Source: a virus (taxonomy: Duplodnaviria; Heunggongvirae; Uroviricota; Caudoviricetes). Taken from it: 40,427 nt of DNA. Below are positions 1 through 40,427 of this stretch, piece after piece (position 1 is the first letter of the stretch; every line of letters begins with the position of its first letter). The stretch covers positions 1 to 40,427 of the IMG/VR virus record IMGVR_UViG_2636416136_000013; one strand, 5' to 3'. The translations under genes and the position numbers were made by a program. The notes beneath the pieces are model-generated. The model saw nothing but the letters and a program-made list of their open reading frames with translations. It ran no database searches and was not told the origin of the DNA.

Positions 1-603
1 CTTCTATATGATAATCCATCATTATCCAACTCTGATATTCAGTTGTTGGCGACAAATCAATTGATTAGTTATCATGTTGTTTTAAATAATAAAATGCTTC
101 CTAATCAGTGCGCTCTTCTTCCTTTGTCGAAGTTAATTATTATTAGCGATAACTTTAGAAAGTTAGCAAAAAATGCTGATTATAATGGGCCGGAACTTTT
201 CACGCACGCACATCAATTCGTGGGACAAAATTACTTAGGATTTGGCGATTATACAATTACTGGCCAGGTACTAGATCTTGGAGGTGGTCAACCTTCTGCT
301 GTTGCCGCACATTTGGTGTTCAAGAATTTACAAGCGAATACAGTTTGGATTCGTCATTTTGTATCAAGCAACACGCAACGAGGAAGTTCAAATGTTACTG
401 CAAAATTTTTAGATGTTTCAGATCAAATTACAAATCTTGTTCCCCAACATCCAACCCAGTTTGGCAGCAACATTGGTCTTAACTATTATTATTACAATAG
501 TCAACCAACTGTAAGGCATTTCCCTGGGTTGCCAAAAAACAAACAGTATCAAATTACTCACCATATTTGTTTCATGCTGGATTTAATAGCAGGTCGTATT
601 TAA
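1..603 (+). CDS. Partial ORF, probably the C-terminal part of a protein starting upstream of the window; function unknown
   Basis: Reading frame is open from nt 1 (the track's Met at 43 is a TTG); AT-rich; the 3' end overlaps the 3' end of the convergent integrase by ~20 nt. No recognisable motifs. Confidence 0.3.
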   Translation, partial: LLYDNPSLSNSDIQLLATNQLISYHVVLNNKMLPNQCALLPLSKLIIISDNFRKLAKNADYNGPELFTHAHQFVGQNYLGFGDYTITGQVLDLGGGQPSAVAAHLVFKNLQANTVWIRHFVSSNTQRGSSNVTAKFLDVSDQITNLVPQHPTQFGSNIGLNYYYYNSQPTVRHFPGLPKNKQYQITHHICFMLDLIAGRI

Positions 604-1758
604 TAAGCTAGCGTACCATTCCATCATTACTTGTCGATCTTTAATATATTGCGCATGATTGTAAGTACCTCGAATAGAGTTCTTATCAACATGCGCAAGC
701 TGCATTTCAATCCAGGCACTTTCAAACCCATGCTCATGCAAGATGGTGCTCATGGTATGCCTGAAACCGTGACCCGTTAACCGACCGTGATAACCCAGTA
801 GTTTTATCACTTTGTTGATGCTGGCTTCGCTCATTGGTTTACTGACGTCATTCCGGCCAGGGAAAACGAGGCTGTAATTCCCTGTTATTTCTTGCAGCTT
901 TTTCAGGATATTGATCGCCTGAGTTGATAACGGAACCAGATGGGGGCGGCGTTTCTTCATCCGTTCTTTGGGGATCTCCCATAAGGCATTATCTAAATCA
1001 AACTCAGCCCATTCCGCTGCACGTAGTTCAATTGTTCGCACGCCTGTTAGCATCAACAGCTGCGTGGCGTATTTGGTAACTAAACTGCCCTGATAGTTAT
1101 CCAGAGCATTAACGAACTCGGGCAACTCGCTTTCAGTCAGGAACGGGAAGTGTTGGGTTTTAGGTTTGTTGAGTGCGATAGCTAAATCGGGTGCAAAATT
1201 ATACTTTGCTCTACCAGTGGCAACAGCATAACGAAGCACTTCACCACAGCGGCGGCGGATCTTACTGGTTTGCTCTAGCGCACCTCTTTTCTCTATTTTT
1301 TGCAGGACGGTTAGCAGTTCTAATGGTTCAATCTGCTCAATTGGGCGCTGGCCGATAAAAGGAAAAATATCCTTTTCCATACAATTGAGAACCTCTTTTG
1401 CATAACCCTCTGACCAGGTGGCTTTTTTCGATGAGTGCCATTCTCTGGCCACAGACTCAAAGCTGTTCTCATGCGCGAACTGCAAAGCAATCTTATCTGC
1501 TTTTCTGGCTTCACTTGGGTTTATCCCGTTGGCTAACATCGAACGCGCTTCATCACGTTTGGTACGTGCCTGTGCCAACGACACATCGCCATATACGCCA
1601 AAGGAAATCATCTTAGGCTTACCTGCAAAGCGATAGCGAAAACGCCAGCCTTTACTGCCCGCTGTGTCGATCAGGAGTGATAGCCCCATACCATCGTTAA
1701 GCGTATAGGGTTTGTCCTTCGGTTTTGCTCTTTTTATTTGGATGTCAGATAGCAGCAT
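583..1758 (-). CDS. int: P4-family tyrosine integrase (site-specific recombinase)
   Basis: N-terminus MLLSDIQIKRAKPKDKPYTLNDGMGL is a typical P4/CP4-57-type arm-binding start; C-terminal catalytic region has HGFRHT...LAHVDKNSIRGTYNHAQY (R..HxxR..Y). Start set at the internal Met (MLLSD), not the track's upstream Met. Confidence 0.9.
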   Translation of the reverse strand: MLLSDIQIKRAKPKDKPYTLNDGMGLSLLIDTAGSKGWRFRYRFAGKPKMISFGVYGDVSLAQARTKRDEARSMLANGINPSEARKADKIALQFAHENSFESVAREWHSSKKATWSEGYAKEVLNCMEKDIFPFIGQRPIEQIEPLELLTVLQKIEKRGALEQTSKIRRRCGEVLRYAVATGRAKYNFAPDLAIALNKPKTQHFPFLTESELPEFVNALDNYQGSLVTKYATQLLMLTGVRTIELRAAEWAEFDLDNALWEIPKERMKKRRPHLVPLSTQAINILKKLQEITGNYSLVFPGRNDVSKPMSEASINKVIKLLGYHGRLTGHGFRHTMSTILHEHGFESAWIEMQLAHVDKNSIRGTYNHAQYIKDRQVMMEWYASLLNTTCY

Positions 1759-2006
1759 GTGTATAGAAAAAAGATCGAACTCAGTTATACACAATGTTAT
1801 ACGCAAAGATGTATAGATTCCATTAGAAATAATGGTACTTTGCTGGACGAGTATAAGGAGATGATATCAGTTAAAACAGTGAGTTATGGAATTAATTGAA
1901 CTTAGTGAGAAGTGTTCATGGTGTCCCCTGCAGACATCTACTTGAGGCGGCAGGGGATTGATTGGAATGGTGTTTTTTAGATGTGAAAAATATTTTACCC
2001 GCTATT

Positions 2007-2207
2007 TTACCCATTGGCGCGGCTTAAGAGCTTATTTTTGAATTCACAATGGTCACGATATAACCATCTTGCTCGCCCGTGGATAACTTTGGCTTTTGGC
2101 AGGTCGCCGGACTTAATCCGGTCGTAGATGAAGGTTTTACCGAAGCCAGTATCGGCCATGATGAATTTCAAATCAACCAGTGAATCAGGCTGTAGTTCGT
2201 GTTGCAT
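2007..2207 (-). CDS. AlpA/TorI-family small DNA-binding protein, likely excisionase/recombination directionality factor
   Basis: 66 aa; LVDLKFIMADTGFGKTFIYDRIKSGDLPK...GRARWL matches the AlpA-type helix-turn-helix pattern; sits directly upstream of int on the same strand. Confidence 0.75.
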   Translation of the reverse strand: MQHELQPDSLVDLKFIMADTGFGKTFIYDRIKSGDLPKAKVIHGRARWLYRDHCEFKNKLLSRANG

Positions 2208-2249
2208 GAGTGCTATCTCCGAATAGGGAATCGAACCTGCAAATCAGGC

Positions 2250-2273
2250 AATAAAAAACCGCCATCAGGCGGC
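2250..2273 (-). terminator. Rho-independent terminator (minus strand)
   Basis: Stem CCGCC/GGCGG with a 4-5 nt loop, followed on the minus strand by a T-run (plus strand shows taaaaaa upstream). Confidence 0.55.
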
Positions 2274-2432
2274 TTGGTGTTCTTTCAGTTCTTCAATTCG
2301 AATATTGGTTATGTCTGCATGTGCTATCTGCGCCCATATCATCCAGTGGTCATAGCAGTCGTTGATGTTCTCCGCTTCGATAACTCTGTTGAATGGCTCT
2401 CCATTCCATTCACCTGTGACTCGGAAGTGCAT
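2265..2432 (-). CDS. Small hypothetical protein (55 aa), below the ORF-track size cutoff
   Basis: Manual minus-strand translation: MHFRVTGEWNGEPFNRVIEAENINDCYDHWMIWAQIAHADITNIRIEELKEHQAA. GGAGA Shine-Dalgarno 6 nt upstream of the ATG; flanked by terminator hairpins on both sides. Confidence 0.4.
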   Translation of the reverse strand: MHFRVTGEWNGEPFNRVIEAENINDCYDHWMIWAQIAHADITNIRIEELKEHQAA

Positions 2433-2443
2433 TTATCATCTCC

Positions 2444-2470
2444 ATAAAACAAAACTCGCCGTAGCGAGTT
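2444..2470 (-). terminator. Rho-independent terminator (minus strand) downstream of the 93-aa moron gene
   Basis: Stem AACTCGC/GCGAGTT with loop, followed on the minus strand by TTTTGTTTTAT. Confidence 0.6.
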
Positions 2471-2520
2471 CAGATAAAAGAAATCCCCGCGAGTGCGAGG
2501 ATAGTTACTTGTTCATATTA

Positions 2521-2802
2521 TTAATCGTCAATATATTTTGAGCATTGTGGGCAATCATCAATCCCACAATACGATTCATATGCATCCTTTATTGCGTCGC
2601 GGGCTTCAGTAAGAGTATTGAATAAGTTGCAGCTATTATCTTTTTGATATAGGTAAGTTCCTAATTTATAAGCAGAAGAAGCATCATTTCCGCTGTCTAA
2701 AATTACATCGTTATGGATTCTGCACCTTGCAAGAACTCCTGATCCCATAAGGGTCTGCATAGCCCATTGCTCTTGATCTTCACACAAATCATGAATGCTC
2801 AT
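2521..2802 (-). CDS. Hypothetical small Cys-containing protein (moron gene in an AT-rich segment)
   Basis: ORF 2521..2820; start set at the ATG preceded by GAGAGG (MSIHDLCEDQ...). The surrounding ~400 bp is visibly AT-rich compared with its neighbours, with an AT-rich upstream region and a downstream terminator. Confidence 0.5.
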   Translation of the reverse strand: MSIHDLCEDQEQWAMQTLMGSGVLARCRIHNDVILDSGNDASSAYKLGTYLYQKDNSCNLFNTLTEARDAIKDAYESYCGIDDCPQCSKYIDD

Positions 2803-2916
2803 TTCAACACCTCTCTTCACGTTTCACACACGTTAAGATTAACAGTGTTTTTACATGCTTTGGAAGATTTATTTTATAAAAACTCTTTTAATACAAATAG
2901 ATATAATAGTTCACTA

Positions 2917-3558
2917 TTATAGCTCCTTTAATCGAGGCGGTTCTGGTAGCGGCATCCAGTGTGATGGAATCCACGACGCACCAGGTATTACCCACCCATC
3001 ATTAGCGTCAGGATGCCCCGGGATGTAAGTCGCCCATTTCATTCGCCAGTCACCTTTCCTGTCAAACTCCCTGGCAACAAGAACGGCTGTTTTGGTATCC
3101 GGCATTCGCTCACTACAGCTTATCCAACCATCCGGAGTTACCGGATAGTTGCCGGGTTCTTTAATGTGCAAGCGAGGCTCACCATCTTTTGGCTCAGGCC
3201 ACTGGCGCTCCATGTTGATCTTCAATTTATCTTCCATAGCAGCGGTAATTTCAGCATCGCTGATGCCAGCACGGCGCTGTGCATCCCACAACAGAAACTG
3301 CATATCAGCCCACTCGCTAAGATCTTCTGGTTCGGCTGCGGCTTCCAGTGCCTCTTTTGAGAGGTGTTTCAGTGGACCAATGGGGCCAACGCAGCCAAAT
3401 GTGGAGTCAGACCATTTGGCATGCTCGTGGCGAATCTGTTCGCGTTCCAGTGATGCCAGTGCAATTCGTGCCAGTTCCATTTGTTCGCCACGAGTAAGCC
3501 CGTTTTCAAGCGGATTTTTAATGAACAATTCAATACGTTCTTTGGTAATAGTGGTCAT
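2917..3558 (-). CDS. Hypothetical early-left protein (213 aa); C-terminal W/P-rich region resembles DUF551-type phage proteins
   Basis: ORF with GGTG Shine-Dalgarno; C-terminus ...DGWVIPGASWIPSHWMPLPEPP. Domain assignment is from recollection, not a search. Confidence 0.55.
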   Translation of the reverse strand: MTTITKERIELFIKNPLENGLTRGEQMELARIALASLEREQIRHEHAKWSDSTFGCVGPIGPLKHLSKEALEAAAEPEDLSEWADMQFLLWDAQRRAGISDAEITAAMEDKLKINMERQWPEPKDGEPRLHIKEPGNYPVTPDGWISCSERMPDTKTAVLVAREFDRKGDWRMKWATYIPGHPDANDGWVIPGASWIPSHWMPLPEPPRLKEL

Positions 3559-3560
3559 GG

Positions 3561-3752
3561 CTATTTCACCTTAATCTCAACATTTCGCAGTTTTAGCTCC
3601 ACTGGCAGGTCTGACTTTCCGGTTAAAGCTAATGCGAGATTTTCTGGAGTAATGAGAGCTGTTATTGTTTTCCCCATCGCCAGACGAATAATCATTCGTA
3701 TTTCGCGATCGTCACATGCTCCTGGTCGAACAATTGATATCTGTCCGTTCAT
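3561..3752 (-). CDS. Hypothetical protein (63 aa)
   Basis: Start set at the internal Met (MNGQISIV...) with an AAGGAG Shine-Dalgarno; begins 1 nt after the stop of the upstream gene. Confidence 0.45.
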   Translation of the reverse strand: MNGQISIVRPGACDDREIRMIIRLAMGKTITALITPENLALALTGKSDLPVELKLRNVEIKVK

Positions 3753-3753
3753 C

Positions 3754-4461
3754 TCACTCTCCTTTGATGCGAATGCCAGCAAGCCAGTTTCTTATGCCGA
3801 TATATTCAGCGTTCCTGAAACCGCTTTTTACATATATAAATGGCAAGCGAAGATTGTGACCATTGGCTGCCAGGTAGTCTTTACAACCCTGTTCGGTGAA
3901 ACAGCAGGTAACGAATTCATCAATATCTTTCACAGCAACGCGCCGCCATTTTTCTGGTGGCTCTCGAAAGTTTTCGTGAAGTAGTTCGAGACGACGACTT
4001 TGGCGTTTATTGGCTTCATTGCCATCTTCATCAACCCAGACAATCCGGTCATAGTCATAATCAGCATCAACAACGATTTCGCGCTTTTGATACACACAAA
4101 ACATGGGATCTGACGTTATTCGATTGTCCTGTGTTCGAATATTTTCACCGATGATGCCAAACGAATCTGGTGCAGATTTTGTCTGCATCTCTTCGATACG
4201 TTCAGCCATCGCAGCACACTCTTCAAAGTTGCTTAATGCTTTTCGCTCCCATTCGGCGCATTGTTTTTCCAGTTCTGCTATGCGCTTACTTCCATCCGAG
4301 ATAACACCTTCGTAATACTCACGCTGCTCGTTGAGTTTTGATTCAAGTTCACCTAACTTACGGACAAGATATTCAGCGTTTGTTTCGTTAACCTTTAAAT
4401 CTCGTGGGATGCATTTACCTTTCAGAAATCCATCCATCTCAATTAGTGGCATTTGTTTCAT
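3754..4461 (-). CDS. Hypothetical early-left protein (~235 aa) with coiled-coil-like N-terminal half
   Basis: ORF 3754..4479; start set at an ATG that forms an ATGA overlap with the stop of the upstream 61-aa gene, suggesting translational coupling. Confidence 0.55.
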
Positions 4462-4640
4462 TTCTTCCCACTCCGCCACATCGCATTCAGATATTTGTTG
4501 TCATTAACAGAACCGAAACTCTTTCTCTTAAGCAATTCCTCTCTCGATGGCATTGGCTTTACGCGTTGGCGAATAATCATTTCTGCCGGAAGAATGCCGG
4601 GATTGTATGCAAGTCCTCTCATGGTAAATTCCTCAGTCAT
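4458..4640 (-). CDS. Hypothetical protein (61 aa)
   Basis: Start MTEEF... overlaps the stop of the upstream 97-aa gene (ATGACTGA); ends in an ATGA overlap with the next gene. Confidence 0.45.
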
Positions 4641-4926
4641 TACTGATAGCGCCATAGCGTGAGCGGTAATTACGCAGGCGCGGGTCAATTTCAGGGAAGT
4701 GGGTATATGTGGCTTTGCGGAATGGTCGGATTGATGTCTGGTAAATTCGCTCGCGTTCTTCTTTCTCTGCAAGCCATATACAGTGGCGAAATTCCTTTTC
4801 CTCTTTCGTTTCCTGCGGTAGAGACATTATTCGATCGTAGTTTTTTCTGAATTTATCCAGCACCTCCGATACGGAATTGCCGGAACAGCGGCGCGCGTCG
4901 TCCTCACCATACAGAGGCGCTGGCAT
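4633..4926 (-). CDS. Hypothetical 97-aa protein; possibly Abc2-like anti-RecBCD protein
   Basis: Lies downstream of erf/ssb, where P22-like phages carry abc genes; the 97-aa length and [10 protein letters not shown]...CSGNSV start recall P22 Abc2. Identity is from memory only. Confidence 0.5.
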
Positions 4927-4949
4927 AATGGAATCCTTATGTTGCTACT

Positions 4950-5333
4950 TTAGAAGGGAATTGAATCGTCGTATTCAGGATGATTTTGATGATTGCTACT
5001 TTGCTGCTGTTGGCTGTTTCCTGAAGCTGCAAATCCAATCTTCGCATTCAGTAATTCAAGAGTGATTGATTGACCATTTTGCCCCTGATAAACATCAACC
5101 CTGATGTTTTCTCCGGTAATTTCCACAATGCCACCTTCAACAAGAACACTACGGTAGTAATCCGCTTGAGCTCCCGGCTTGGCAAATACAACGGCGCTGT
5201 AGTTTGTCCACTCTTTCTTTTTTGTCTGGCGATCGTAATACTGAACGCCAGCACGGATGTTGAATCCGATATTTTCCCCGGCCTGAAACTCTCTTGCGGG
5301 CTTGTTTAGTCTTACAGTAATCGAATGTGCCAT
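4950..5333 (-). CDS. ssb: Single-stranded DNA-binding protein (short phage SSB)
   Basis: OB-fold-like N-terminal region, Q/N-rich linker and acidic C-terminal tail ...EYDDSIPF, the characteristic SSB tail. Start ATG overlaps the erf stop (TAATG). Confidence 0.75.
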   Translation of the reverse strand: MAHSITVRLNKPAREFQAGENIGFNIRAGVQYYDRQTKKKEWTNYSAVVFAKPGAQADYYRSVLVEGGIVEITGENIRVDVYQGQNGQSITLELLNAKIGFAASGNSQQQQSSNHQNHPEYDDSIPF

Positions 5334-5938
5334 TAAGCAGTTGCCCCTTCTAATTCGTCTCGTCTGATGTTGTAAACGTCCTGCGCTTTGTGCTGCTCCG
5401 GTGTGCCTTCGAGCATCTTCCACGCTTTGGCGAACGCCTGTTTAAGCTCTTCTACGGTGTTTTTCTGCATTGCTGCGTCAGTGAATGCTTTTAGAACCTG
5501 TTCAGGTGTAGGTGATGGTTTTGATTGCTTTGCTGCTGCGTTCTGCTGATGTTTATGCTCGTCTGTATCTGCATCTTTCGCATCATCAATGCCGAACAAA
5601 CCATTGAGGCAATACTTGCGCGCATAAGAGCTTGTAGCTCCCGTAACTTGTGCAGAATCCATTCCTTTCTTGCTTTCTTCCTCTCGTGCAAGAGCGGTTG
5701 CCGTATGGCTGCTTTCGCCATCGGTAATAGTTGCCGTGGCTTTCACGTAATACCGATCACCAATCAGCACAACTTCATCGCTGATTGATAAAAACAGGCC
5801 ATTCAGTAGCGGCTTAACGCCTTCAAGAATGTCTTCGCAGCTTCTGTATTTATATTTACCGAATGAGTTGTACTGATTCTTTGGCGCGTTCAGATTCTCC
5901 TGAATAGCTGCCAGTCTTGCGTAAAACTCTTTGCTCAT
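5333..5938 (-). CDS. erf: Erf-family single-strand annealing recombinase
   Basis: MSKEFYARLAAIQENLNAPKNQYNSFGKYKYRSCEDILEGVKPLL... closely recalls P22 Erf; start set at MSKEF rather than the track's upstream Met. Confidence 0.85.
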   Translation of the reverse strand: MSKEFYARLAAIQENLNAPKNQYNSFGKYKYRSCEDILEGVKPLLNGLFLSISDEVVLIGDRYYVKATATITDGESSHTATALAREEESKKGMDSAQVTGATSSYARKYCLNGLFGIDDAKDADTDEHKHQQNAAAKQSKPSPTPEQVLKAFTDAAMQKNTVEELKQAFAKAWKMLEGTPEQHKAQDVYNIRRDELEGATA

Positions 5939-6039
5939 ATGTTTGATCTCAGAATGGACACGGCCCAAGGAAATAACGCTGATTTAATACTTCGACTCGG
6001 GACAAATTAAGGCATACCCGCATTCCTTCGCGGTCACCA

Positions 6040-6198
6040 TTATGGCGATACCAGAGAGCTTTCTGCGTGTACATGCGCCTCTGTAACTTGCTCTCCTTCA
6101 CTGTGGTTGCAAGTGACATGAATATCTCCTTCGTTACCGATTAATTCTTTCATCTGACGAATGAATTCTTCGTCTGACCAGTTATCTGTAAAACTCAT
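6040..6198 (-). CDS. Hypothetical small protein (52 aa) in the kil position
   Basis: ATG forms an ATGA overlap with the cIII stop; no recognisable similarity to lambda Kil. Confidence 0.35.
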   Translation of the reverse strand: MSFTDNWSDEEFIRQMKELIGNEGDIHVTCNHSEGEQVTEAHVHAESSLVSP

Positions 6199-6365
6199 GG
6201 ACGGCCTTGTTGTTTCAAAATATCCCAAAGCTTTTCGAGCAAACTTTTCATTCTTGGTTGTTTAAAGTCTGCTCCGGTTAAAATATTTTTTCGTGAATGC
6301 TGTACCGATAAAATCGGGTTGAAAGGGCGAACCGATGCCGCCCCTGCAATAGCGAACTGTTGCAT
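6195..6365 (-). CDS. cIII: CIII-like protein (protease inhibitor that stabilises CII)
   Basis: MQQFAIAG... start and ...SLLEKLWDILKQQGRP match the lambda CIII pattern (MQYAIAG..., ...LIDILNQPG); AGGAG Shine-Dalgarno 7 nt upstream. Confidence 0.7.
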   Translation of the reverse strand: MQQFAIAGAASVRPFNPILSVQHSRKNILTGADFKQPRMKSLLEKLWDILKQQGRP

Positions 6366-6430
6366 AGGATGCTCCTTCTGTTTGATTGCATAACGAAAAC
6401 GCCTCAAGTGAAGCGTTATTGGTATGCATA

Positions 6431-6456
6431 TAAAAAAGCCCTCACATTGGAGGGCA
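6431..6456 (-). terminator. Rho-independent terminator (minus strand), tL1-like, between the 107-aa gene and cIII
   Basis: Stem GCCCTC/GAGGGC followed on the minus strand by TTTTTTAT. Confidence 0.55.
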
Positions 6457-6582
6457 AAGAAGATTTCCAATAATCAGAACAAGTCGGCTCCTGTTTAGTT
6501 ACGAGCGACATTGCTCCGTGTATTCACTCGTTGGAATGAATACACAGTGCAGTATTTATTCTGTTGTTTATGCCAAAAATAA

Positions 6583-6604
6583 AGGCCGACTATGCGGCCT
6601 TATC
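6583..6604 (-). terminator. Candidate terminator hairpin (minus strand) overlapping the 3' end of the 107-aa gene
   Basis: Stem AGGCCG/CGGCCT followed on the minus strand by TTATTTTTGG. Confidence 0.45.
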
Positions 6605-6913
6605 TACATTCCTGAACCAAACGCAGATCGGACCGTCTTCTGTATCGTGAATCGAACCAACAAACCATCCTTCTCCATCTGGCATGCTTGGCTCCCATCC
6701 GCTGATGTTTGGATTCCCATCTTCAAAATACGAGTCAATTACCGTTTGATTGTTGTCGTTTTCCATTTCAACAATTGATGATTCAATGCCATGCTGCTTG
6801 CAGAAAGATCTGAACTCATCAACTGAAATTACCTCTCTATCCCCAAACAGGTTGGCGTATTCTGGGTGCGTCCAGTAGCCATCCTCGCTTCGCTCTACTA
6901 CTAATGCTTCCAT
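6590..6913 (-). CDS. Hypothetical highly acidic protein (107 aa), first gene after N
   Basis: About 23 Asp/Glu against about 6 Lys/Arg in 107 residues, counted by eye; occupies the position where lambda encodes ral. Confidence 0.6.
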   Translation of the reverse strand: MEALVVERSEDGYWTHPEYANLFGDREVISVDEFRSFCKQHGIESSIVEMENDNNQTVIDSYFEDGNPNISGWEPSMPDGEGWFVGSIHDTEDGPICVWFRNVDKAA

Positions 6914-6921
6914 ATCTCACC

Positions 6922-7248
6922 TCAAATAAGTGGTTTGCTGCCTAATTTCATTTTCTGGCGACCAACACAAGTCATACCCATTTCACTGCGTGGCTTGCTG
7001 TACCATGTGCGCTGATTCTTGCGCTCAATACGTTGCAGGTTGCTTTCAATCTGTTCGTGGTATTCAGCCAGCACCGTAAGGTCTATCGGATTCAGTGCGC
7101 TTTCTACTCGTGATTTCGGTTTGCGATTCAGCGAGAGAATAGGGCGGTTAACTGGTTTTGCGCTTACCCCAACCAACAGGGGATTTGCTGCTTTCCATTG
7201 AGCCTGTTTCTCTGCGCGACGTTCGCGGCGGCGTGCTTGTGCATCCAT
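6922..7248 (-). CDS. N: Antitermination protein N
   Basis: MDAQARRRERRAEKQAQWKAANPLLVGVSAKPVNRPILSLNRKPKSRVESALNPIDLTVLAEYH... is near-identical to lambda N as recalled (arginine-rich boxB-binding motif at the N-terminus). Start set at MDAQ. Confidence 0.92.
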   Translation of the reverse strand: MDAQARRRERRAEKQAQWKAANPLLVGVSAKPVNRPILSLNRKPKSRVESALNPIDLTVLAEYHEQIESNLQRIERKNQRTWYSKPRSEMGMTCVGRQKMKLGSKPLI

Positions 7249-7354
7249 CTGGATTCTCCTGTCAGTTAGCTTTGAGTAACGCGCCGTGATGCTTATCTCC
7301 ACGGTTGCTGTCTTGCAGCTGCATTTCGCGCTACTCAAAGCCTTCTGCTTTGAA

Positions 7355-7395
7355 TGCTGCCCTTCTTCAGGGCTAAATTTTTAAGAGCCTCACCT
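7355..7395 (-). promoter_or_regulatory. nutL site (boxA and boxB)
   Basis: Minus-strand reading gives GGCTCTTAAAAATTTAGCCCTGAAGAAGGGC: boxA-like CTCTTAA plus the boxB hairpin GCCCTGAAGAAGGGC (plus 7359..7373), matching lambda nutL. Confidence 0.8.
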
Positions 7396-7428
7396 TCAAT
7401 GGTGGTCAGTGCGTCCTGCTGATGGCTA

Positions 7429-7457
7429 AATAGTACGATTTGTACTTTATCGAGTCA
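7429..7457 (-). promoter_or_regulatory. Candidate PL promoter with overlapping OL operator
   Basis: Minus strand reads TTGACT, 17-nt spacer, TACTAT; the spacer and -10 overlap a perfect palindrome AGTAC-N5-GTACT (plus 7431..7445). Confidence 0.6.
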
Positions 7458-7522
7458 ATACAAAATGTTCTAAATATAATTAGTTTTTTATAACGCTTTG
7501 TATTTAATGGGTTTATATTTTG

Positions 7523-7553
7523 GAAAAAGAAAACCCGGCGCTGAGGCCGGGTT
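7523..7553 (-). terminator. Rho-independent terminator ending the cI / 348-aa gene transcript
   Basis: Stem CCCGGC/GCCGGG with 6-nt loop followed on the minus strand by TTTTCTTTTT, just downstream of the 348-aa ORF stop. Confidence 0.7.
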
Positions 7554-7562
7554 TGGAGTGCA

Positions 7563-8609
7563 TCACTCTGGTTCGCTGGGGAATATATTTATCAATTGCC
7601 CTGTTGAAATGTGCCCATTTTCTACAACCTCTAGGTATGAAATTTCAACAGTTGATTCTTTGGCTACAGCATTCAAAAACTCAAGAAGCTCATCAGTAGA
7701 TGTTATGTCGGCTGAGGTTTTTATGGTGAAAGATTCACCATTTGAAACCCTTATGACGTCAATATTTATGTCCTGATTTGTTTCTCCCGAGCGACGAACG
7801 CCAGTGACATAAAAGTTATCTCTTCTAGTTTCCTTTTTTCGATCAATTGATTGTCTTTGGTTTAAGGTATTCAACTGTTCTCTATTTACCACTCTCTGAC
7901 CAATTGTTACCCTCTCAACTGACGAGTCTTGAGCAAGCTTTTTAAGCAACTTGCTTTTACCATCCTCGCCGTGAGCCAGAACCTCTCTGCTAATGTTTGT
8001 TTGACCGCTAATCAACAACTTGAGCACATTGTCTTGTGCTTCGTTTACCGCTTTGGTGCTTTTTTCCACCAATTGCACCTGAGAATCTTGGTCATGTCGC
8101 TGTGTTTCGTAGTACTCATTGATCCACTTATAGCCTACCGTGCTGGCAGCTAAGACGATAGCGGCGACGGCGCATAGTGCTTGCCTTCCTGTCATTTTGC
8201 CTATCGCTTGAGTAAACACTGTCACCACTCCGTTTACAATCGGATCTGAGTCACCATCCGCTTGGCTTGAGCCTTCGCTTATTCGGTAGACAATATCCAG
8301 CAAACCTTTCTCTGCATCTTTTAGCTTCTGCCGATTATGAGTGCTGTGACTGACTACCGTAAATGCTTTTTGTATTTCATGCGTAAGCTCTGCCATACCA
8401 AAAAGCATTGACGCAGTCAATGAAGAATTATATCTATTTGGATCGCCTTTTACATTAATATTGATCTTTGGCCATCCACTGAAAACTACGTTAGGGAATG
8501 TGAAGTCGCTTGAGTCGATATCCTTCCTTCCGAGCATTTCTGTTACAAAAGATACAAAGTCGTCTTCTGACTTGATAACATATTGCGCAGGTTGATCAAT
8601 CGCTGACAT
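7563..8609 (-). CDS. Hypothetical 348-aa protein with one central hydrophobic segment, in the rexAB-equivalent position
   Basis: Starts 25 nt downstream of the cI stop on the same strand, with AAGGA Shine-Dalgarno 7 nt upstream; hydrophobic stretch ALCAVAAIVLAASTVGY mid-protein; followed by a terminator. No recognisable family. Confidence 0.7.
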   Translation of the reverse strand: MSAIDQPAQYVIKSEDDFVSFVTEMLGRKDIDSSDFTFPNVVFSGWPKININVKGDPNRYNSSLTASMLFGMAELTHEIQKAFTVVSHSTHNRQKLKDAEKGLLDIVYRISEGSSQADGDSDPIVNGVVTVFTQAIGKMTGRQALCAVAAIVLAASTVGYKWINEYYETQRHDQDSQVQLVEKSTKAVNEAQDNVLKLLISGQTNISREVLAHGEDGKSKLLKKLAQDSSVERVTIGQRVVNREQLNTLNQRQSIDRKKETRRDNFYVTGVRRSGETNQDINIDVIRVSNGESFTIKTSADITSTDELLEFLNAVAKESTVEISYLEVVENGHISTGQLINIFPSEPE

Positions 8610-8634
8610 TCTTAATCCTTAACATCCATTCCTA

Positions 8635-9288: not shown

Positions 9289-9350
9289 TTTCATATCCTT
9301 ATTATTACGCTCTGTACTAAAACCATCCATGCACAAGATGTATTTTTTGT

Positions 9351-9379: not shown

Positions 9380-9405
9380 TGTCTCATGGTTACTATGGAG
9401 GGCAT

Positions 9406-9621: not shown

Positions 9622-9629
9622 GACATTCC

Positions 9630-10034: not shown

Positions 10035-10056
10035 TAACATCCAACTAGGCAATTAT

Positions 10057-30442: not shown

Positions 30443-30444
30443 CC

Positions 30445-31137: not shown

Positions 31138-31147
31138 GGGTTAATCA

Positions 31148-32563: not shown

Positions 32564-34791
32564 TGAAAGTAACTGCAAACGGTAAGACATTTACCTTTCC
32601 TGATGGTACGAGCACCGAAGATATTGGCACCGCCATTGATGAGTATTTTGCTGGTCAGGCTGTTCAGCAACAAACAGTTAATCAGGCCAATAATGCACCA
32701 ACACGGGAAGAACCATCATTGATGCAACAAGCTGGCGATTGGCTCACTGGTGGTCAAAGTGCAGGGCAAATTGTAGAACAGGCTGGTCGTGGTCTGGTAA
32801 ACATACCATTTGACGTATTGCAGGGTGGCGCAAGTCTGATTAATGCAATCAGCCAGGGGCTTGGTGGCCCCAAGGTTTTGGACGATGTCTATCGTCCAGT
32901 AGATCGACCGACAGACCCTTATGCGCAAGCTGGAGAGTCAATAGGCGGTTATCTTGTTCCTGGAGCAGGAGTAGCTGGAAACATGGTCATTGGTTCTCTC
33001 GCTGACGCGGCGAATCAACGGGGTGATTTTGCCGAAAATGCCGCTATTAATGCCGGACTTAACATTGCTACGCATGGCCTGATAAATGGCGTTACCCATG
33101 GTGTTCGTGGTGCATCAAATATAATTAGTGGCAATAAAACATCTGCACAGAGAGCGACCACTGCGCCAACAGAAACATCACCATTCTCCGGTGATGCCGC
33201 TGCAGCAACAAATCCTGCGGTTCATGCCGCAGAGGCAAGAGTAGCACAAGGTGTACCAATGACGCCTGCGACGAGGAACCCAGAGGAAGTCGTTCGCACA
33301 GTAGCAGCACAAAAAAGGCCAAATCTCGCTTCATCGCTTGATGAACTAGATATCAATCCTCAGGCTGAAGTTCTGGAGTCTGCTGAAAGGCTTAATGTTG
33401 ATTCATTACTCCCTTCACACTTTTCCGGTAACGAGCAATACAAGGCAGTTGAGCAAGCAATCAAGTCCCGTGCGGGTTCTGCTCTACAGGTGCAGGAAAA
33501 TGAAGCAATCAGGCAGCTAGCACAGGGCGCGGGGGAGATAATTGATCGCGTTTCCGGTGCAAAAGATGCTCTTGGTATGAGCGACAAGTTTATTGATACG
33601 GTCAATGGAAGAATGTCTGCGCTGATGAAACGAAGCGACCAGCTTTATCGCAATGTTGAAAAGGCGATGCCTGCAGGTGCAAAAATTGATGCGCCATCAA
33701 CAAGGTCAATGCTCAAACAGGTGGCAGAAGATCTTGGCGGGATGAAAAACCTTGACCCTATTGAAAAGAGAGTCTTTCGGGCAGTTAATCCAGGCAAGAA
33801 CGGCGCATTAACTTATGCAAATCTCAATAAGCAACGACGACTTGTTGGTGATGCACTTCATAAGAATTCTGGGCCATATAAAGATGCTGATCGCGCTGCT
33901 TTATCGAGGCTTTACGGTTCTCTCGCCGATGATCAAAAGGCGGCGCTGTCAGAGACAAATGCATTACGTGATTTTGAAGTTGCTCAGAGGCTTGTTCAGA
34001 TGCGAAAAAGCATGGAAGAGCAAATGATTAATCTAACTGGCAGAACGCTGAACGGTGATGTTTCTCGCAAAGCAACTACAGCACTACAGGCAATGTCGAA
34101 AGGCGATGCCAAAGGATTTCGTGAATTGATGCAAAACACGCCGTCCAGGAAGCTAAGAACCGAGCTACTGGGAACAGGTCTTCGGGATATGCTTTCGAAC
34201 GGAAAACGTGGCGCTGATTTTAATCCTGCAGGGTTTGCTGACTGGTATCAAAACATGTTAGCAAACGGGCAGATGCGCAATCTTGCCCGACATTTACCAA
34301 AAGAGACTATGTCAGGGCTGAACGATGTATATAAGGTCGCAAAGGCTATCAAAGACGCAAAATCTTACGAGATAACTACAGGAAGACTAAACGAGTTCGT
34401 CAAACGGTTTAATCGCGTCACTGCGGCAAATGAATTTGTTGCTAACCATGCCCAACGCATTGGCACTGCGGTTGGTTCAACTGTGTCAGGACCGTTCAGT
34501 GCAGTAGGTGCTGTTGCTGGGTCAGAAATTGGGGCAAAAGTCGCCAGCAAAATCAGGGCGATGGGCGGCGCTGAATCAATTGAATCTGCAGAAAAGCTAA
34601 TTAGCTCACCAGAATTCCAGAAAGCAGCAAGGCTGGCAGTAAAACAAGCACCAGAAAGCATCGTTGATACAACTGTAAGACGCTCTTCTGCTTGGCGCTC
34701 GTTTTACAACTCACTTCCAGAATCAGATAAGAAAACCATATCAAGGCTAGGCATCATGTACTGGATGAACAGTGATGATAACCAGAAGTAA
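32560..34791 (+). CDS. Ejection/DNA-transfer protein (P22 gp16-like)
   Basis: 743 aa; last gene of the ejection-protein trio before the accessory region. Confidence 0.6.
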
Positions 34792-34808
34792 CGGAAAGCC
34801 ACGGATGG

Positions 34809-35006
34809 TTAGTTGCAGTCTTTTTTATATAAATCTCTGAGCGTATCAAAGACAATTTTCTTTACCATATCGGATTGTTGGTCTGCAATACGCGATGCTA
34901 TTGGTAGCGATGAATTCAATCGCTTGTCGAGAGCTGGTATTGTCGCCTCGTTAAGCGGAATGGAGCGGGAGTAATTAGTAATCCACGGATGGATTCGTTT
35001 AGCCAT
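34809..35006 (-). CDS. Hypothetical protein (65 aa), distal gene of a small minus-strand operon
   Basis: ORF overlapping the stop of the upstream ~140-aa gene by 8 nt; no recognisable motifs. Confidence 0.45.
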   Translation of the reverse strand: MAKRIHPWITNYSRSIPLNEATIPALDKRLNSSLPIASRIADQQSDMVKKIVFDTLRDLYKKDCN

Positions 35007-35445
35007 CGGATAGGCGCTCTTTTGCCTCTTCGATTAAATCAGCACAAATAAGAGGTAGCTCTGATGAAACAACTTCCCAGCCAGATTTTTTAACAACTTC
35101 ATTTAACCACTCTTCTCGATCGTGAGTTCCTCTTCTTTTTTCTAGGAGGAATATTTGAGAGTAAATCTGAATGGCCTTCTCGTTTAGATAAAACGCATAT
35201 TGCCTGTTTAAAACAACATCTGCAAGTATATCAATGCCTTGTTGAGTTTTTGCCGCTACATCTGGCTCTACTCCCATACGAATAGATAAATCGCATAACT
35301 CAACGAATGCACGCTCTTCAGCGTCGTATTTCATTTTGTAAAAATGTGAAGCCAGTTTTTGTGTTTCGGCGAGTTCTGCCCTTAATTTTTTTATCTTGCT
35401 TCTCGTTAATATACCAAACACACCAACCTCCTTAGTTTTGAGCAT
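34999..35445 (-). CDS. Hypothetical cytoplasmic protein (~140-148 aa)
   Basis: ORF 34999..35445; an AAGGAGG Shine-Dalgarno lies just inside the annotated 5' end, so the true start is probably the GTG at plus 35419..35421. Confidence 0.55.
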   Translation of the reverse strand: MLKTKEVGVFGILTRSKIKKLRAELAETQKLASHFYKMKYDAEERAFVELCDLSIRMGVEPDVAAKTQQGIDILADVVLNRQYAFYLNEKAIQIYSQIFLLEKRRGTHDREEWLNEVVKKSGWEVVSSELPLICADLIEEAKERLSDG

Positions 35446-35474
35446 GACGAAATTAACCAGCCATCAGGATGGTA

Positions 35475-35657
35475 TTAGTCACATTCTATTTCTTTTGTCG
35501 AGGTCCATACATAAGGGTCTGAGCAAACAACCTCTCCATTTATCATGACGTCATAGCCCATTAGATATGAGTTACCACCAACAACCTGGGCGGCGATGAC
35601 GCTAATGCTGGCGGCGCAGGCTGCACCAAAAACGAAACCAATTAATATATTTTTCAT
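35475..35657 (-). CDS. Small secreted protein (60 aa) with signal peptide
   Basis: [25 protein letters not shown] resembles a signal peptide; the ~35-aa mature part contains two Cys. Confidence 0.45.
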
Positions 35658-35679
35658 TTTGATTCCAAATAGTTATAGG

Positions 35680-35874
35680 ATGAAAGTTACGACCATAGAA
35701 GAACGCCTGAACAACACTGAGTTAAACCAAACCCTGCTTGACCAGCGACTTTCAGATCTTGAACTTAAAGATCTTGATGCGCAAATATCAGAAGCAGAAG
35801 CCAAGCTCTCCAGCTTAAACCACCGCAAGAAGCAAATCCGCAACAGAATTACTCAGGGACGCGGAAGCTGTTGA
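35680..35874 (+). CDS. Possible small coiled-coil protein (64 aa)
   Basis: ORF frame 35596..35874 with internal ATG; heptad-like sequence; weak ribosome-binding context. Confidence 0.25.
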   Translation: MKVTTIEERLNNTELNQTLLDQRLSDLELKDLDAQISEAEAKLSSLNHRKKQIRNRITQGRGSC

Positions 35875-35895
35875 TGTAGGGCCACAATCCTATCG

Positions 35896-36285
35896 TTAAC
35901 ATTTTCTTTTTACTTTTCCAACAAAAGCTTTGGTTGAATCCATATTTCCATAACCGGAAATGGTTTTTGACATTAAAACTGTTCCAGTAGGATGTATTAC
36001 CCATGAGTCTATAACGCGTTGAGTTTCTCCATTCGCGCCAATTCCTAGGATGGAGTTTTTAGACAATGCTTTGTAAGCCATGCCACCCGCATCTGTCCCA
36101 GAATATGTGACGCTGGCATCTTCACCGCTTGTCTTAATGATGAATGTTCCACTAAAACCATCTTCTTCCGGTTGGAAATTATTTCGTTCTGAATAGTTTA
36201 TTCCGCGCATATCTCCAACGACCCAGCACTCCGCTGTAGCCCCAAAAGATATGAATAAGAACATAGCAGCAAGAAATTGCTTCAC
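35896..36285 (-). CDS. Secreted/periplasmic hypothetical protein (129 aa; GTG start)
   Basis: AAGGAGG Shine-Dalgarno 5 nt upstream of the GTG; signal-peptide-like N-terminus (M)KQFLAAMFLFISFGATAEC. Confidence 0.6.
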   Translation of the reverse strand: MKQFLAAMFLFISFGATAECWVVGDMRGINYSERNNFQPEEDGFSGTFIIKTSGEDASVTYSGTDAGGMAYKALSKNSILGIGANGETQRVIDSWVIHPTGTVLMSKTISGYGNMDSTKAFVGKVKRKC

Positions 36286-36402
36286 GCCAACCTCCTTAGT
36301 TTTGAGCAGGATACCATGAAAAAAGTAAACATCTTTTGTCTACTTCACATTTGAATGGTTTGTCATTAGGATGTTTCCGGTTTTTTAAATATGGAAATTG
36401 TT

Positions 36403-36822
36403 ATGAAGAGGATTATTGGCGTCGTTGCTGGCGCTATATTGTTATCTGGGTGCGCAACTATTGTTGGTGACGAAACGCAGCTTGTGCAAGTGAACAGCAA
36501 TCCCTCCGGTGCGAGCTTTAAGGTAAAAGACGAATCAGGCGTGATTGTTGCGCAAGGTAAGACCCCGCAAGGAGTAACTCTTGCCAAGTCAGATGGTAGT
36601 TATTTTGGCAAAAAGAGCTACCAGATCACTATGGAAAAGGATGGGTACGAACCAGTTACCCTGCCAATCAAAGCCAATGCTAATGGCTGGTATATTGGTG
36701 GAAACCTTGTGTTTGGTGGGTTAATTGGTTGGCTTGCTGTAGATCCTTTTAATGGTGGGATGTATACCTTGAAGCCAAAAGAGGCAAACGCATCTCTTAT
36801 ACCATCAACAAAGCAAGACTAA
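36403..36822 (+). CDS. Lipoprotein (PEGA-like fold suspected)
   Basis: Lipobox MKRIIGVVAGAILLSGC; mature part has KDGYEP and a Gly/Trp-rich C-terminus; followed by two tandem terminators. Confidence 0.65.
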   Translation: MKRIIGVVAGAILLSGCATIVGDETQLVQVNSNPSGASFKVKDESGVIVAQGKTPQGVTLAKSDGSYFGKKSYQITMEKDGYEPVTLPIKANANGWYIGGNLVFGGLIGWLAVDPFNGGMYTLKPKEANASLIPSTKQD

Positions 36823-36831
36823 TAAATAGGA

Positions 36832-36854
36832 CCCACCTTCAGGTGGGTTTTTTG
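36832..36854 (+). terminator. Rho-independent terminator 1 after the lipoprotein gene
   Basis: ACCCACC-TTCA-GGTGGGT followed by TTTTTTG. Confidence 0.75.
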
Positions 36855-36904
36855 TACAAATCCTTCAGCCAGTACATAACTACTGACAGATAACCAACGC
36901 AACG

Positions 36905-36929
36905 ACCCAGCTTCGGCTGGGTTTTTTTA
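36905..36929 (+). terminator. Rho-independent terminator 2 (tandem)
   Basis: ACCCAGC-TTCG-GCTGGGT followed by TTTTTTTAT. Confidence 0.75.
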
Positions 36930-36986
36930 TGCCCAAAATTCACCGTAGCTACGCTGCGGCGATTCCTTGTATCTGGAGCAAATTAA

Positions 36987-39161
36987 ATGACAGACATTAC
37001 AGCCAATGTGATCGTATCGATGCCTTCGCAACTCTTCACTATGGCTCGTTCTTTTAAAGCTGTAGCCAATGGCAAAATTTATATCGGTAAAATTGACACT
37101 GACCCGGTAAATCCTGAAAACCAAATTCAGGTTTATGTGGAGAACGAAGACGGCTCTCACATTCCCGTTTCGCAACCAATAATTATTAACGCTGCTGGCT
37201 ACCCTGTATATAACGGACAGATTGCCAAATTCGTAACCGTGCAAGGCCATTCTATGGCTGTTTATGATGCGTATGGTACACAGCAGTTCTATTTTCCGAA
37301 TGTGCTGAAGTATGACCCGGATCAGTTTAAATTACTTATTGGCGGTACAGATGGTAGTAAATATATCGGTTTCGGCGCTTCAACTGTTTACGATGCAATC
37401 AGGAAAACACCTCAATACTATGGAGCTAAAGCAGATGGATTGACATCAGATTCTGATGCCATTAATGCCGCAGCATTAGCTGCTTTTAATAATGGTGGCG
37501 GGGAAATATTTTACCCTCCAGGTGTTTATTTAATAGATTCTCCTATCATTCTTTATACAGGCGTTCATCATAAAGGCTCTGGAAAGAGAGCAACATTTCT
37601 GTATGTTAAAAAAGGTAGTAATACAGATGTATTTAAAACACATGGCTTTGGCGTTGTGGATAATCTGTCTGATGCGCCATATGGTTTTAGCATAAAAGAT
37701 ATGACCATTGATGGTAATTATCTTGACTTGCAAAGAGATACAAACTCATGGAGAACTTGCGACACTGTTAACAATGACTATGGAACTGCCATTAAAATAT
37801 TCGGCAGCATGTACCACATTGATGTTGAGATTAATAATGTTGCAGAACATGCTCTCTATTCAGAGGGGTATGGATCATTTCATGATAATCAGGAACACGC
37901 CTCTGAAGTGAGGATAACGGGAAGAATTTCAGGGAGAGAGGGGGTTGTGTTCAGGGGGCCAGGTGATATTAACCTAGATTATATTGTTTTTGGCCTGTGT
38001 GGACTTCCTCCTTACAGCACAAGATTAACAGCAACAAGCCAACAAAGCCTTCTTTATCCCGGAGAACCATGTCATGGAATTGTTCTTGATAATCAGTCTC
38101 CTTATACAGGACATGTCGATATAAATTACATCCATGTATATGCTGCGTATTATGGCTATGGATTTAAGACGCTGGGTGTTAACCGATTCAATGCGAGGCA
38201 TGTGTGTGTTGATAATAGTTTAGGTGGTTACTGGTTTACCAACGGGGCACATGGTGTTGTTGCCATCGCAGAAGCCAGGGCGTGCGGAAGAATGCCAGAT
38301 AACTACACTGGCGATTCAATTTCTCCTCTCCGCGACATGCTTCTGGATAACGGTACAATCTGGACACTTAACATCAATATAAAAGCACAAAGATATTCAC
38401 CTTCAATTGATGATGATGGGTATCAGATAGCTATATCAGGCAACAACAATGTAGTTACAATAAACCAAATTGGTCAGTTACAGAGTGACAATGCCCCTAT
38501 TAAAGCCTCGCTTCTTTCTGTTACTGGTGACAATAACAATGTTACTTTTACATCCAAGAGGATAAAAGGAAATTTATGTTACTTATCCGGCGGTGGTAAT
38601 AATATAAGAGGTTCGTGTGATAATTTGTTTTCGGGTTCTGCTCTTATTCGCGATGCAGTAAATTCAACAACAATTTGTTTTGCGAACAGCGTAGATATAA
38701 CTGCGAAGGGGCTTTCTTCTGATTGTACTGGATTTAACAGCATTGGCACATGTGCATCAGAGAATATAAGATTAATCACTTCAGGCGCAAATGGTTATAA
38801 TAGGTTTTTAGGTGATAGAATGGCAGCCCTTAACAGGACGTGTACGTGGACGATTATGGCAACAGTTGGAAACTCAATAAATGGGAAATCAACTGACGAT
38901 TATATTGAGTGGAATATGCCAAACCCAACAGGTAGCGAATCTAACGAGGTTGATATTGAGCATAATTTTCTGTATGCCCCAACACCAAACCAGATTGCTG
39001 TGTTGGGGTTTAGACAACCTGCTGGTTCTGCAGAAGGTGCAACTTTAAGTCCAATAGAAATTATCGGAACTCCAAGTGAGTCTTCTTTCAGAATTAGATA
39101 CCATTGGTCAGGCACTTTATCTTCTGGCTCTGCTCCAATTGTAATGTTCAGGATTAGATAG
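36987..39161 (+). CDS. Tailspike protein (P22 gp9-type head-binding N-terminus, divergent beta-helix receptor domain)
   Basis: N-terminal ~115 aa [58 protein letters not shown]...NVLKYDPDQ matches the P22/HK620 tailspike head-binding domain; the rest is different and has a pectate-lyase-like start [18 protein letters not shown]. Confidence 0.85.
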
Positions 39162-39211
39162 AATTAATTGATATTTTAAAAAATTAAATTATTAGTTGAT
39201 AAATTGTATGC

Positions 39212-39250
39212 GCAAGGCCTGTAACTTGAGTGCCAGGCCTTGCATGTTTT
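39212..39250 (+). terminator. Terminator between the convergent tailspike and integrase genes
   Basis: Stem GCAAGGCCTG...CAGGCCTTGC followed by ATGTTTTCATT. Confidence 0.6.
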
Positions 39251-39269
39251 CATTGATTTTTAAGATGGT

Positions 39270-40427
39270 TCACTCCACCTTATCATCTAACCAGTCAGCC
39301 CACCATTGCATCATTTCTCTGCGTTTATCGAGATACTGAGCATGGTTGTAAATTCCGCGCACAGATCCGCCGTTGGCATGTGCCAGTTGCACCTCAATCG
39401 CGTCAGCAGGCCATTCGTGCTCGTTCATAATCGTGCTGAATTCATGCCTGAATCCGTGACCGCTTTCCAGACCCTCATAGCCGATTTGTTTGATCACAAG
39501 CAATACCGCGTTCTCGCAGATTGGCTTCTTCTTATCGTTGCGCCCGGCAAAAACAAACTCTGATACTGGTTTAGTGATTGAGCTTAGCGTAGTGAGAAGT
39601 TCAACCACCTGGTCTGACATCGGGACCACATGAATTTTGCGTCCCTTCATCACACTGGCGTCGATGGTGATAATCCTGTTTTCAAAATCGACGTTCTTCC
39701 ATAGCATGGAACGAAGCTCTTTCGTTCTTAGGGCGGTGTAGCGTAAAACTTTGGTCGCAATGAGCGATACGATGCTTCCTGAAAATGTTGCCAGTGCTTT
39801 GTTAAATGCCGGGATCTGGTCTGCTGGAAGGAACGGGAAGTTCTTCTTGCGGTATCCTTTCATGGCGTCTGCAAGGTCAGGTGCCGGGTTATATTTAGCC
39901 CTTCCGGTGACAATAGCGTAACGGAAAACCTCGCCGCATCTTCTGCGTGCTTTGTTGGCTCGCTCCATTGCCCCGCGATCTTCAAATCTGCGGATTACTT
40001 CCAGCAGTTGCATCGGCTCAATATCCTGAATTTCAAGGCCGCCGATGATGGGTAAAATGTCGTCATCAAACATTTTTGCAAGTTCAGTTGCATAGCCTAC
40101 TGACCAAACTTGCTTCTTGTGCTCGTACCATTCCTTGTAAATCGCACTAAAGGAATTGTTGTTAGACGAAGCCTTTTTCGCTTTTACCGGATCGATGCCA
40201 ACCGAGATGTCTTTCCTCGCGGTCCATGCTTTATCTCTTGCCTCCTGCAAAGTCATTAGCGGATATTTTCCTACGGTCAGGATTTTCTCCTTACCGTCAA
40301 TCTTGTAGCGAAGCTGCCATACCTTTTTCCCTGACACAGGGACATAAAGGTACAGGCCATTACCATCGAGTAGGCGGTATGGTTTTTCTTTCGGCTTTGC
40401 TGCTTCAATCTGCTTAACGGTGAGCAT
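39270..40427 (-). CDS. int: P4-family tyrosine integrase (second copy; start codon at the window edge)
   Basis: MLTVKQIEAAKPKEKPYRLLDGNGLYLYV N-terminus parallels the left integrase; catalytic HGFRHE...LAHANGGSVRGIYNHAQY; the ATG is the last three bases of the window, so upstream signals are not visible. Confidence 0.88.
   Translation of the reverse strand: MLTVKQIEAAKPKEKPYRLLDGNGLYLYVPVSGKKVWQLRYKIDGKEKILTVGKYPLMTLQEARDKAWTARKDISVGIDPVKAKKASSNNNSFSAIYKEWYEHKKQVWSVGYATELAKMFDDDILPIIGGLEIQDIEPMQLLEVIRRFEDRGAMERANKARRRCGEVFRYAIVTGRAKYNPAPDLADAMKGYRKKNFPFLPADQIPAFNKALATFSGSIVSLIATKVLRYTALRTKELRSMLWKNVDFENRIITIDASVMKGRKIHVVPMSDQVVELLTTLSSITKPVSEFVFAGRNDKKKPICENAVLLVIKQIGYEGLESGHGFRHEFSTIMNEHEWPADAIEVQLAHANGGSVRGIYNHAQYLDKRREMMQWWADWLDDKVE

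Follow-up and report, generated by a model that had tools for sequence, protein, structure and literature searches.

The stretch of DNA analysed here, referred to as the window, comprises the 40,427 nucleotides of IMG/VR virus record IMGVR_UViG_2636416136_000013 (Caudoviricetes), in which a P22-like prophage is accompanied by an integrase gene at either end and by a short attachment (att) core matching the 3' end of the tRNA gene argW. Both integrase genes lie on the minus strand. The left gene (583..1758) encodes a protein of 391 amino acids (aa) starting MLLSDIQIKRAKPKDKPY; its mechanically called open reading frame (ORF) reaches a TTG at 1806, and the ATG at 1758 matches the protein annotated in RefSeq relatives. 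The right gene (39270..40427) encodes a protein of 385 aa starting MLTVKQIEAAKPKEKPY, and its ATG ends the window. The two proteins were found to be 45% identical over 387 aa (E = 5e-124), which is far beyond chance, and to have a Pfam architecture in common (Arm-DNA-bind_3, Phage_int_M and Phage_integrase), with RT(I/K)ELR, HGFRH and LAH..(N6-7)..Y, corresponding to the R...HxxR...H...Y motifs in the catalytic domain of P4-family tyrosine integrases, visible in both translations. A pair of minus-strand P4-type integrases with related N-termini at the window ends had been described in an earlier note made from the sequence alone, and both genes were confirmed.

The right integrase was identified as IntS, the integrase of the P22-like prophage, with 6 of its 385 residues differing from the Int of phage HK620 and 4 of 385 from the IntS of Ecol_276; its RefSeq relatives are annotated as intS, and the 5' end of the gene faces an attL and an argW that lie off the window. 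The left integrase, assigned by its Pfam domains to the P4-family tyrosine recombinases, is 100% identical to the integrase located beside argW in SK1144, where it is that of a P4-related satellite of approximately 11 kb.

Between the satellite integrase and the remainder of the prophage, a minus-strand gene for a protein of 66 aa (2007..2207) was identified as torI, encoding the recombination directionality factor (RDF; excisionase) that is the partner of IntS. Its product is 100% identical to HkaC of HK620 and to E. coli TorI (WP_001163428.1), and it matches PDB entry 1Z4H ('Tor inhibition protein') over all 66 residues (1-66; E = 6.6e-43). Pfam and NCBIfam at default thresholds gave no name to this gene, and its match to the AlpA family (PF05930; E = 0.12) scored 12.7 bits against a cut-off of 21. 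The gene had previously been called AlpA-like and placed at the far end of the prophage; the position held, while the label is only loosely right, the gene being torI with an AlpA score below threshold.

The att core CTGCAGGGGACACCAT (16 bp, minus strand) was found as a single copy in the window, at 1918..1933, and consists of the last 15 nucleotides (nt) of argW (nt 61-75) plus one base. This position falls within the interval 1759..2006, in which the junction between two elements had been predicted. The core equals the attP core annotated at 1368..1383 of the HK620 record and the 16-nt core published for KplE1 (PMC2951348). No tRNA gene was detected by ARAGORN, argW being represented in the window by its last 15-16 nt only, as the core. 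BLAST matches to phage genomes begin at window position 1918, and matches to satellite and argW sequences end at 1933. Read in the direction of the tRNA, the sequence to the left of the core is the torI-side attP arm of HK620 type, and that to its right is the sequence that follows argW in strains carrying the satellite only.

On the prophage side, the P arm adjoining torI (1934..2006) is near-identical to the left attP arm of HK620 and has two TATTTTACCC repeats at 1991..2012, corresponding to the 'attP' repeat_region at 1441..1463 of the HK620 record. On the satellite side, the int-proximal att arm together with the region upstream of the integrase (1759..1917) is identical to the post-argW sequence in satellite-only genomes, and the words GTTATAC/TGTATAG are repeated within it at 1760..1816. 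These words are candidate arm-type sites, judging from their repetition, and similar GTGTATA words were observed in the distal arm of the satellite. The block of identity between the satellite and argW extends over 20 bp, made up of ATTC and the 16-bp core.

The last base of the window is the A of the intS ATG. This suggests a cut made at gene boundaries, by a prophage caller for instance, in which the attL/argW junction some 145-235 bp further on was lost. The attR copy of the core is the one at 1918..1933, and the attL copy is expected approximately 145-160 bp past the window end, where it is present in Ecol_276 and in the 1717 E. coli genomes that have a junction of argW with intS.

Configurations at argW in phages and E. 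coli genomes

In free phage genomes (HK620, N7, Sf6, HF4s, Kapi1, HK633, IME10 and others), an IntS-type integrase gene and torI were found to lie approximately 160 + 90 bp apart with only attP between them. In the HK620 record, int (50..1207) and hkaC/TorI (1457..1657) flank the attP core in this manner. This arrangement bears out the earlier assignment of the right integrase to the P22-like prophage with the small excisionase gene at its far end, as the same integrase and torI are separated in free phages by attP only. The left integrase was never paired with torI in the free phage genomes examined.

Chromosomal junctions were counted in 5426 complete E. coli genomes. A junction of argW with intS was present in 1717 of these and a junction of argW with the satellite integrase in 425. 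Where the satellite is alone, as in SK1144, the order is argW, core, int, the remaining satellite genes up to alpA, core and dsdC; the core copy at its far end, which would be the third of a tandem, was seen in SK1144 at 8279..8294 of the region extracted from that genome (L006). Window positions 1..1933 were 100% identical to genomes that have this integrase beside argW and no prophage, in agreement with the proposal that the left integrase belongs to a second element extending leftwards. Conversely, EC32 and AR_0058 were found to carry a P22-like prophage that ends in torI, core and dsdC, without a satellite.

The order seen in the window, with torI joined to the satellite integrase (argW, phage, satellite), was found in 13 of the 5426 genomes. 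Ecol_276 carries the tandem in this order, with argW 161 bp past the intS ATG and the whole satellite present. The tRNA and att junction had been placed beyond the right edge of the window, and in all relatives examined argW is found there, at 161 bp from the intS ATG; the window's own junction is not visible. The best complete-genome relatives of the window were 99.5% identical at its left end and 97.4% identical at its right end. Among the 13 genomes of the same order, similarity to the window stops at differing points just past torI (2311 to 2511), suggesting that the satellite has a number of different phages as neighbours. The reverse order, in which the distal end of the satellite is joined to intS (argW, satellite, IntS element), was found in 6 genomes, of which one (L010) was inspected and has a decayed, KplE1-like remnant as its tRNA-distal IntS element. 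Co-occupied genomes thus number 19 (13 + 6), against approximately 139 expected if occupancy by the two were independent (438 × 1723 / 5426), a comparison that is not corrected for phylogeny. This deficit of tandems at argW could be explained by lineage structure.

The left integrase gene and torI are adjacent, co-oriented and 248 bp apart, which superficially resembles the xis-int order of lambda. The earlier note had accordingly retained an alternative, by which these two genes form the int/xis pair of the prophage, with attP situated 3' of the left integrase and with the right integrase derived from a neighbouring element. Such an arrangement is extremely improbable. It is refuted by the genomes with a prophage only, which end in torI, core and dsdC and lack the left integrase, and the left integrase in turn occurs without any prophage in 425 genomes. 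In free phages, the partner of torI on the other side of attP is the IntS-type integrase and in no case the left integrase; in the window, the att core sits between the left integrase and torI. The direct repeat that this arrangement requires was absent, the longest word common to 1..700 and 39100..39300 being 9 nt, with shuffled sequences giving a mean of 8.8 and a maximum of 13. A lambda-type int/xis cassette was therefore rejected for this locus, the core lying between the left integrase and torI and no above-chance repeat linking the 3' flanks.

A second alternative is that of a composite element, in which the prophage captured a satellite module (or the reverse) and a unit of approximately 51 kb moves as a whole by way of its outermost att sites. 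The same junction recurs in 13 genomes, and cross-reaction at the level of the core is conceivable, given 45% identity between the integrases and a 16-bp core that is the same in both elements. Set against this are the intact internal core, which separates the two elements with both cognate arms in place, and the differing arm repeats (TATTTTACCC in one, GTTATAC/TGTATAG in the other). Each element is also far commoner alone, and the reverse order exists as well. Furthermore, approximately 51 kb is more than the headful packaged by P22-type phages. A composite is consequently considered very unlikely.

It could also be argued that the left integrase is a dead remnant of an older, decayed island and not part of a live second element, given that the window shows no more of it than the integrase gene and part of a cargo gene. 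The ORF of this integrase is nevertheless intact, and its product is 100% identical to that of complete elements of approximately 11 kb that are bounded by two cores and carry genes for a primase, an Ogr/Delta protein, AlpA and a capsid homologue. The whole satellite is, moreover, present in Ecol_276, the closest tandem relative. The probability of a remnant is accordingly put at a very low level.

The window thus very probably covers part of a tandem array of two elements at the argW (tRNA-Arg CCU) site of an E. coli-type chromosome, namely the member nearer the tRNA gene and the initial 1.9 kb of the one farther away. The array consists of a P22-like prophage and a small P4-related satellite integrated head-to-tail at argW, each with its own integrase, which is an ordinary and well-understood arrangement. 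Three points weigh against this interpretation. The attL of the window, argW and the rest of the satellite are predicted from relatives that are 97-100% identical, the window itself stopping at the intS ATG. The capacity of either element to still excise is likewise presumed from its sequence, and the junction sequences do not tell which of the elements arrived first.

Proposed recombination at the common core and comparison with known systems

In the IntS/TorI module, integration proceeds by IntS-mediated recombination of the attP core with the argW 3' end, excision depends on IntS together with TorI and IHF, and the intS promoter overlaps attL (PMC2951348, PMC3509656). KplE1 has intS at its attL end and torI at its attR end, and HK620, Sf6 and CUS-3 carry the same module (PMC2951348, PMC3509656). 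Excision dependent on IntS, TorI and IHF has been shown experimentally for KplE1 and HK620 substrates (PMC2951348).

For the prophage of the window, IntS, as a P4-family tyrosine recombinase, would recombine the 16-bp attP core with the same 16 bp at the argW 3' end, such that the tRNA gene is regenerated. In the circular form, attP is flanked by the 5' end of intS on one side and by the 3' end of torI on the other, so that integration would place intS (attL) and torI (attR) at opposite ends of the prophage. The satellite integrase targets the same tRNA end through the 20-bp identity block containing the same 16 bp, with different arm repeats and an AlpA-family excisionase of its own. As a complete core would flank the element on either side after each integration, an occupied argW would still accept a second one. 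In the direction of the tRNA, the resulting array would read argW, core, intS, the P22-like prophage, torI, core, the satellite integrase, sce7725/sce7726, delta, primase, alpA, core and dsdC.

The core at 1918..1933 is accordingly read as a hybrid site, which would act for the phage as attR and at the same time for the satellite as attL. The attR half of the prophage was found with both arms intact, including the TATTTTACCC repeats, and the int-proximal arm of the satellite is also intact, with a different repeated word. With both of its own arms kept, each element should still be able to excise alone, and the predicted products match the configurations of other genomes, which carry only the satellite or only the prophage. 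Inferring the order of arrival from the junctions was considered and rejected, as both orders of integration predict exactly the junctions observed.

The transcriptional context of the junction was also examined. A scan of 1600..2600 for consensus sigma-70 sites revealed no promoter-like site, and no terminator-like hairpin was found between the torI stop (2007) and the ATG of the satellite integrase (1758). A strong terminator-like hairpin was identified just upstream of torI (2275..2256, minus). As no hairpin separates torI from the satellite integrase gene, transcripts passing through torI could continue into the latter, and read-through from an induced phage is possible. From this, and from the presence of two related integrases with one common core, it can be speculated that induction of the phage might switch on or disturb recombination of the satellite and make tandems unstable. 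Such instability would fit the deficit of tandems described above (19 observed against approximately 139 expected), but is regarded as unlikely.

Comparison with the KplE1 (CPS-53)/HK620/Sf6/CUS-3 module (Panis et al. 2007, 2010; PMC2951348, PMC3509656) showed the same core, a TorI that is 100% identical and an IntS that is approximately 98% identical, with intS in the tRNA-proximal position, torI at the far end and the same TATTTTACCC arm repeats. The window differs from this module in that its attR is followed by the int-proximal arm of the satellite instead of the chromosomal dsdC flank, giving a hybrid attR/attL. The lambda and P22 int-xis systems similarly combine a tyrosine integrase with a small winged-helix RDF and have both arm-type and core-type sites. 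In those phages, however, int and xis are neighbours, and attP, situated 3' of int, has both of them on the same side, whereas here attP lies between the 5' end of the integrase gene and the 3' end of the RDF gene.

Tandem arrays at tRNA genes (tDNAs) have been defined and counted in Islander (PMC4383910), where every array member comes with an integrase and a correctly oriented tDNA fragment of its own. Both features were found here: the two integrase ORFs are intact (391 and 385 aa), and the core at 1918..1933 is oriented as argW is in the relatives, the outer copies lying off the window. No difference in kind from the arrays of Islander/TIGER (PMC4383910) was identified, the present pair being a P22-like phage and a P4-related satellite at argW that occur in both orders in E. 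coli. Nothing about the arrangement is new in kind: the IntS/TorI/argW module has been the subject of experiments, and catalogues exist of tandem arrays at tRNA genes.

For annotation, the boundaries of the prophage are the argW core expected just past 40427 and the core at 1918..1933, and the left integrase and the sce7725 fragment adjoining it (described below) should not be counted among the prophage genes. The window provides a worked example of how an occupied tRNA att site stays open to a second element with a related integrase. The counts at argW give a rough picture of competition for this site in E. coli, with no new mechanism implied.

The P4-related satellite

In SK1144 the satellite was examined at 8755..19128 of region L006, and only the last 1.9 kb in that numbering has its counterpart inside the window. 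This part contains, besides the integrase, the 3' portion (200 codons) of a gene of the sce7725 family on the plus strand (1..603), a low-GC cargo gene of the satellite, which matched NCBIfam NF033831 (sce7725_fam) at profile positions 122-311 of 312 (E = 3.6e-43). It had been noted before as an AT-rich partial ORF; the low GC content (35.8%) stands, and the label is adjusted to the C-terminal 200 codons of a sce7725-family gene. This gene and that of the satellite integrase overlap by 21 bp at their 3' ends, and the full sce7725-family gene is annotated in relatives (WP_000287253.1).

Off the window, the genes identified in L006 include sce7725/sce7726, an Ogr/Delta-type zinc finger, a primase with Toprim, zinc-ribbon and DUF927 domains, and an Ash/Icd-like protein. 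P4-like satellites are described as having a core set of int, psu, delta, sid, alpA, epsilon and alpha (de Sousa & Rocha, PMC8628076). Of this set, int, delta, alpA and an alpha-type primase were found (Pfam Ogr_Delta, Phage_AlpA and Toprim_3/Zn_Ribbon_Prim/DUF927; PHROG DNA primase), the AlpA-family excisionase being located at the far end of the satellite (Pfam E = 5e-20). The capsid-size genes psu and sid gave no Pfam or PHROG match in L006. In their position are a homologue of the P2-family major capsid protein (PF05125, E = 9.5e-67) and, beside it, an ORF of 286 aa. Because Psu and Sid were not detected, the element is called P4-related here and not a canonical P4-like satellite.

Comparison with P4-like satellites that have a cargo/defence hotspot (Rousset et al. 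2022, PMC9122126; PMC8628076) revealed a similar size (approximately 11 kb), integration at a tRNA gene, a P4-family integrase, a Toprim/zinc-ribbon primase, an Ogr/Delta activator, an AlpA excisionase and low-GC cargo next to int. The argW satellite differs from these in having the P2-family major capsid homologue in place of a detected Psu/Sid, and in its neighbour, which is a P22-like prophage and not a P2-type helper. It also differs from P4 in its predicted circular order: alpA, not the primase, would neighbour att, giving alpA-att-int as opposed to the alpha-att-int of P4. The argW satellite may represent a non-canonical type of P2-dependent satellite. The P22-like phage is not a P2-type helper, and its pairing with the satellite is likely to reflect their common att site and not a helper-satellite relationship.

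The sce7726-sce7725 pair (36% GC; L006 16120..17973) is situated between the Ogr/Delta gene and int, which is the position of the cargo/defence hotspot in P4. PADLOC identified nothing for sce7725, and sce7726 matched only the 'cll' model (E = 1e-18), leaving a defence role for the satellite cargo unsupported. Approximately 12 GGGCT pentanucleotide repeats were also observed at about 8418..8480 of L006, 125-185 bp from the distal att core of the satellite.

The prophage body and an argW-derived 16-mer

A scan for exact matches identified a second 16-mer derived from argW, TTGCAGGTTCGATTCC (argW nt 46-61), on the minus strand just upstream of torI (2227..2242). In the tRNA gene this sequence lies immediately 5' of the att core, with an overlap of 1 nt, whereas in the window it is 293 nt from the core with torI between the two. 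The torI gene thereby has a piece of argW on each side (nt 46-61 at 2227..2242, nt 61-76 at 1918..1933), and the two pieces are contiguous in the tRNA gene; the chance expectation for such an argW 16-mer match in the window is approximately 1e-3. TTGCAGGTTCGATTCC is conserved in HK620, Kapi1, EC32, AR_0058 and Ecol_276, with a one-base variant in the decayed element of L010, and it overlaps the 'phage integration' promoter and cII-site annotation of the HK620 record. The 16-mer may have survived from an ancestral attP of greater length, or may coincide by chance with a promoter element. That the argW pieces on either side of torI are left from the origin of a layout with integrase and RDF on opposite sides of attP is a further idea, to which little probability is assigned.

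The body of the P22-like (Lederbergvirus-type) prophage (2208..39269) has its early-left genes on the minus strand, together with replication, nin, lysis and virion genes. Pfam matches were found to P22_portal, P22_CoatProtein, Head_binding (the tailspike), Terminase_3 (the large terminase) and Peptidase_S24/HTH (the repressor). The tailspike gene occupies 36987..39161, and a cI-like repressor is encoded at 8635..9369. Among phages, CUS-3, phiv205-1 and Kapi1 are the closest, with 94-96% identity in the late region, and a prophage syntenic with that of the window occurs in Ecol_276.

The DnaB-type helicase of the prophage (11276..13669, plus strand) has 797 aa, including an insertion of approximately 355 residues (about 207-561) that lies directly after the Walker-A region and matches the homing-endonuclease families LAGLIDADG_3 and Hom_end. 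This insertion looks like an intein. The helicase of the related prophage in Ecol_276 was found to be 478 aa long and to be without the insertion.

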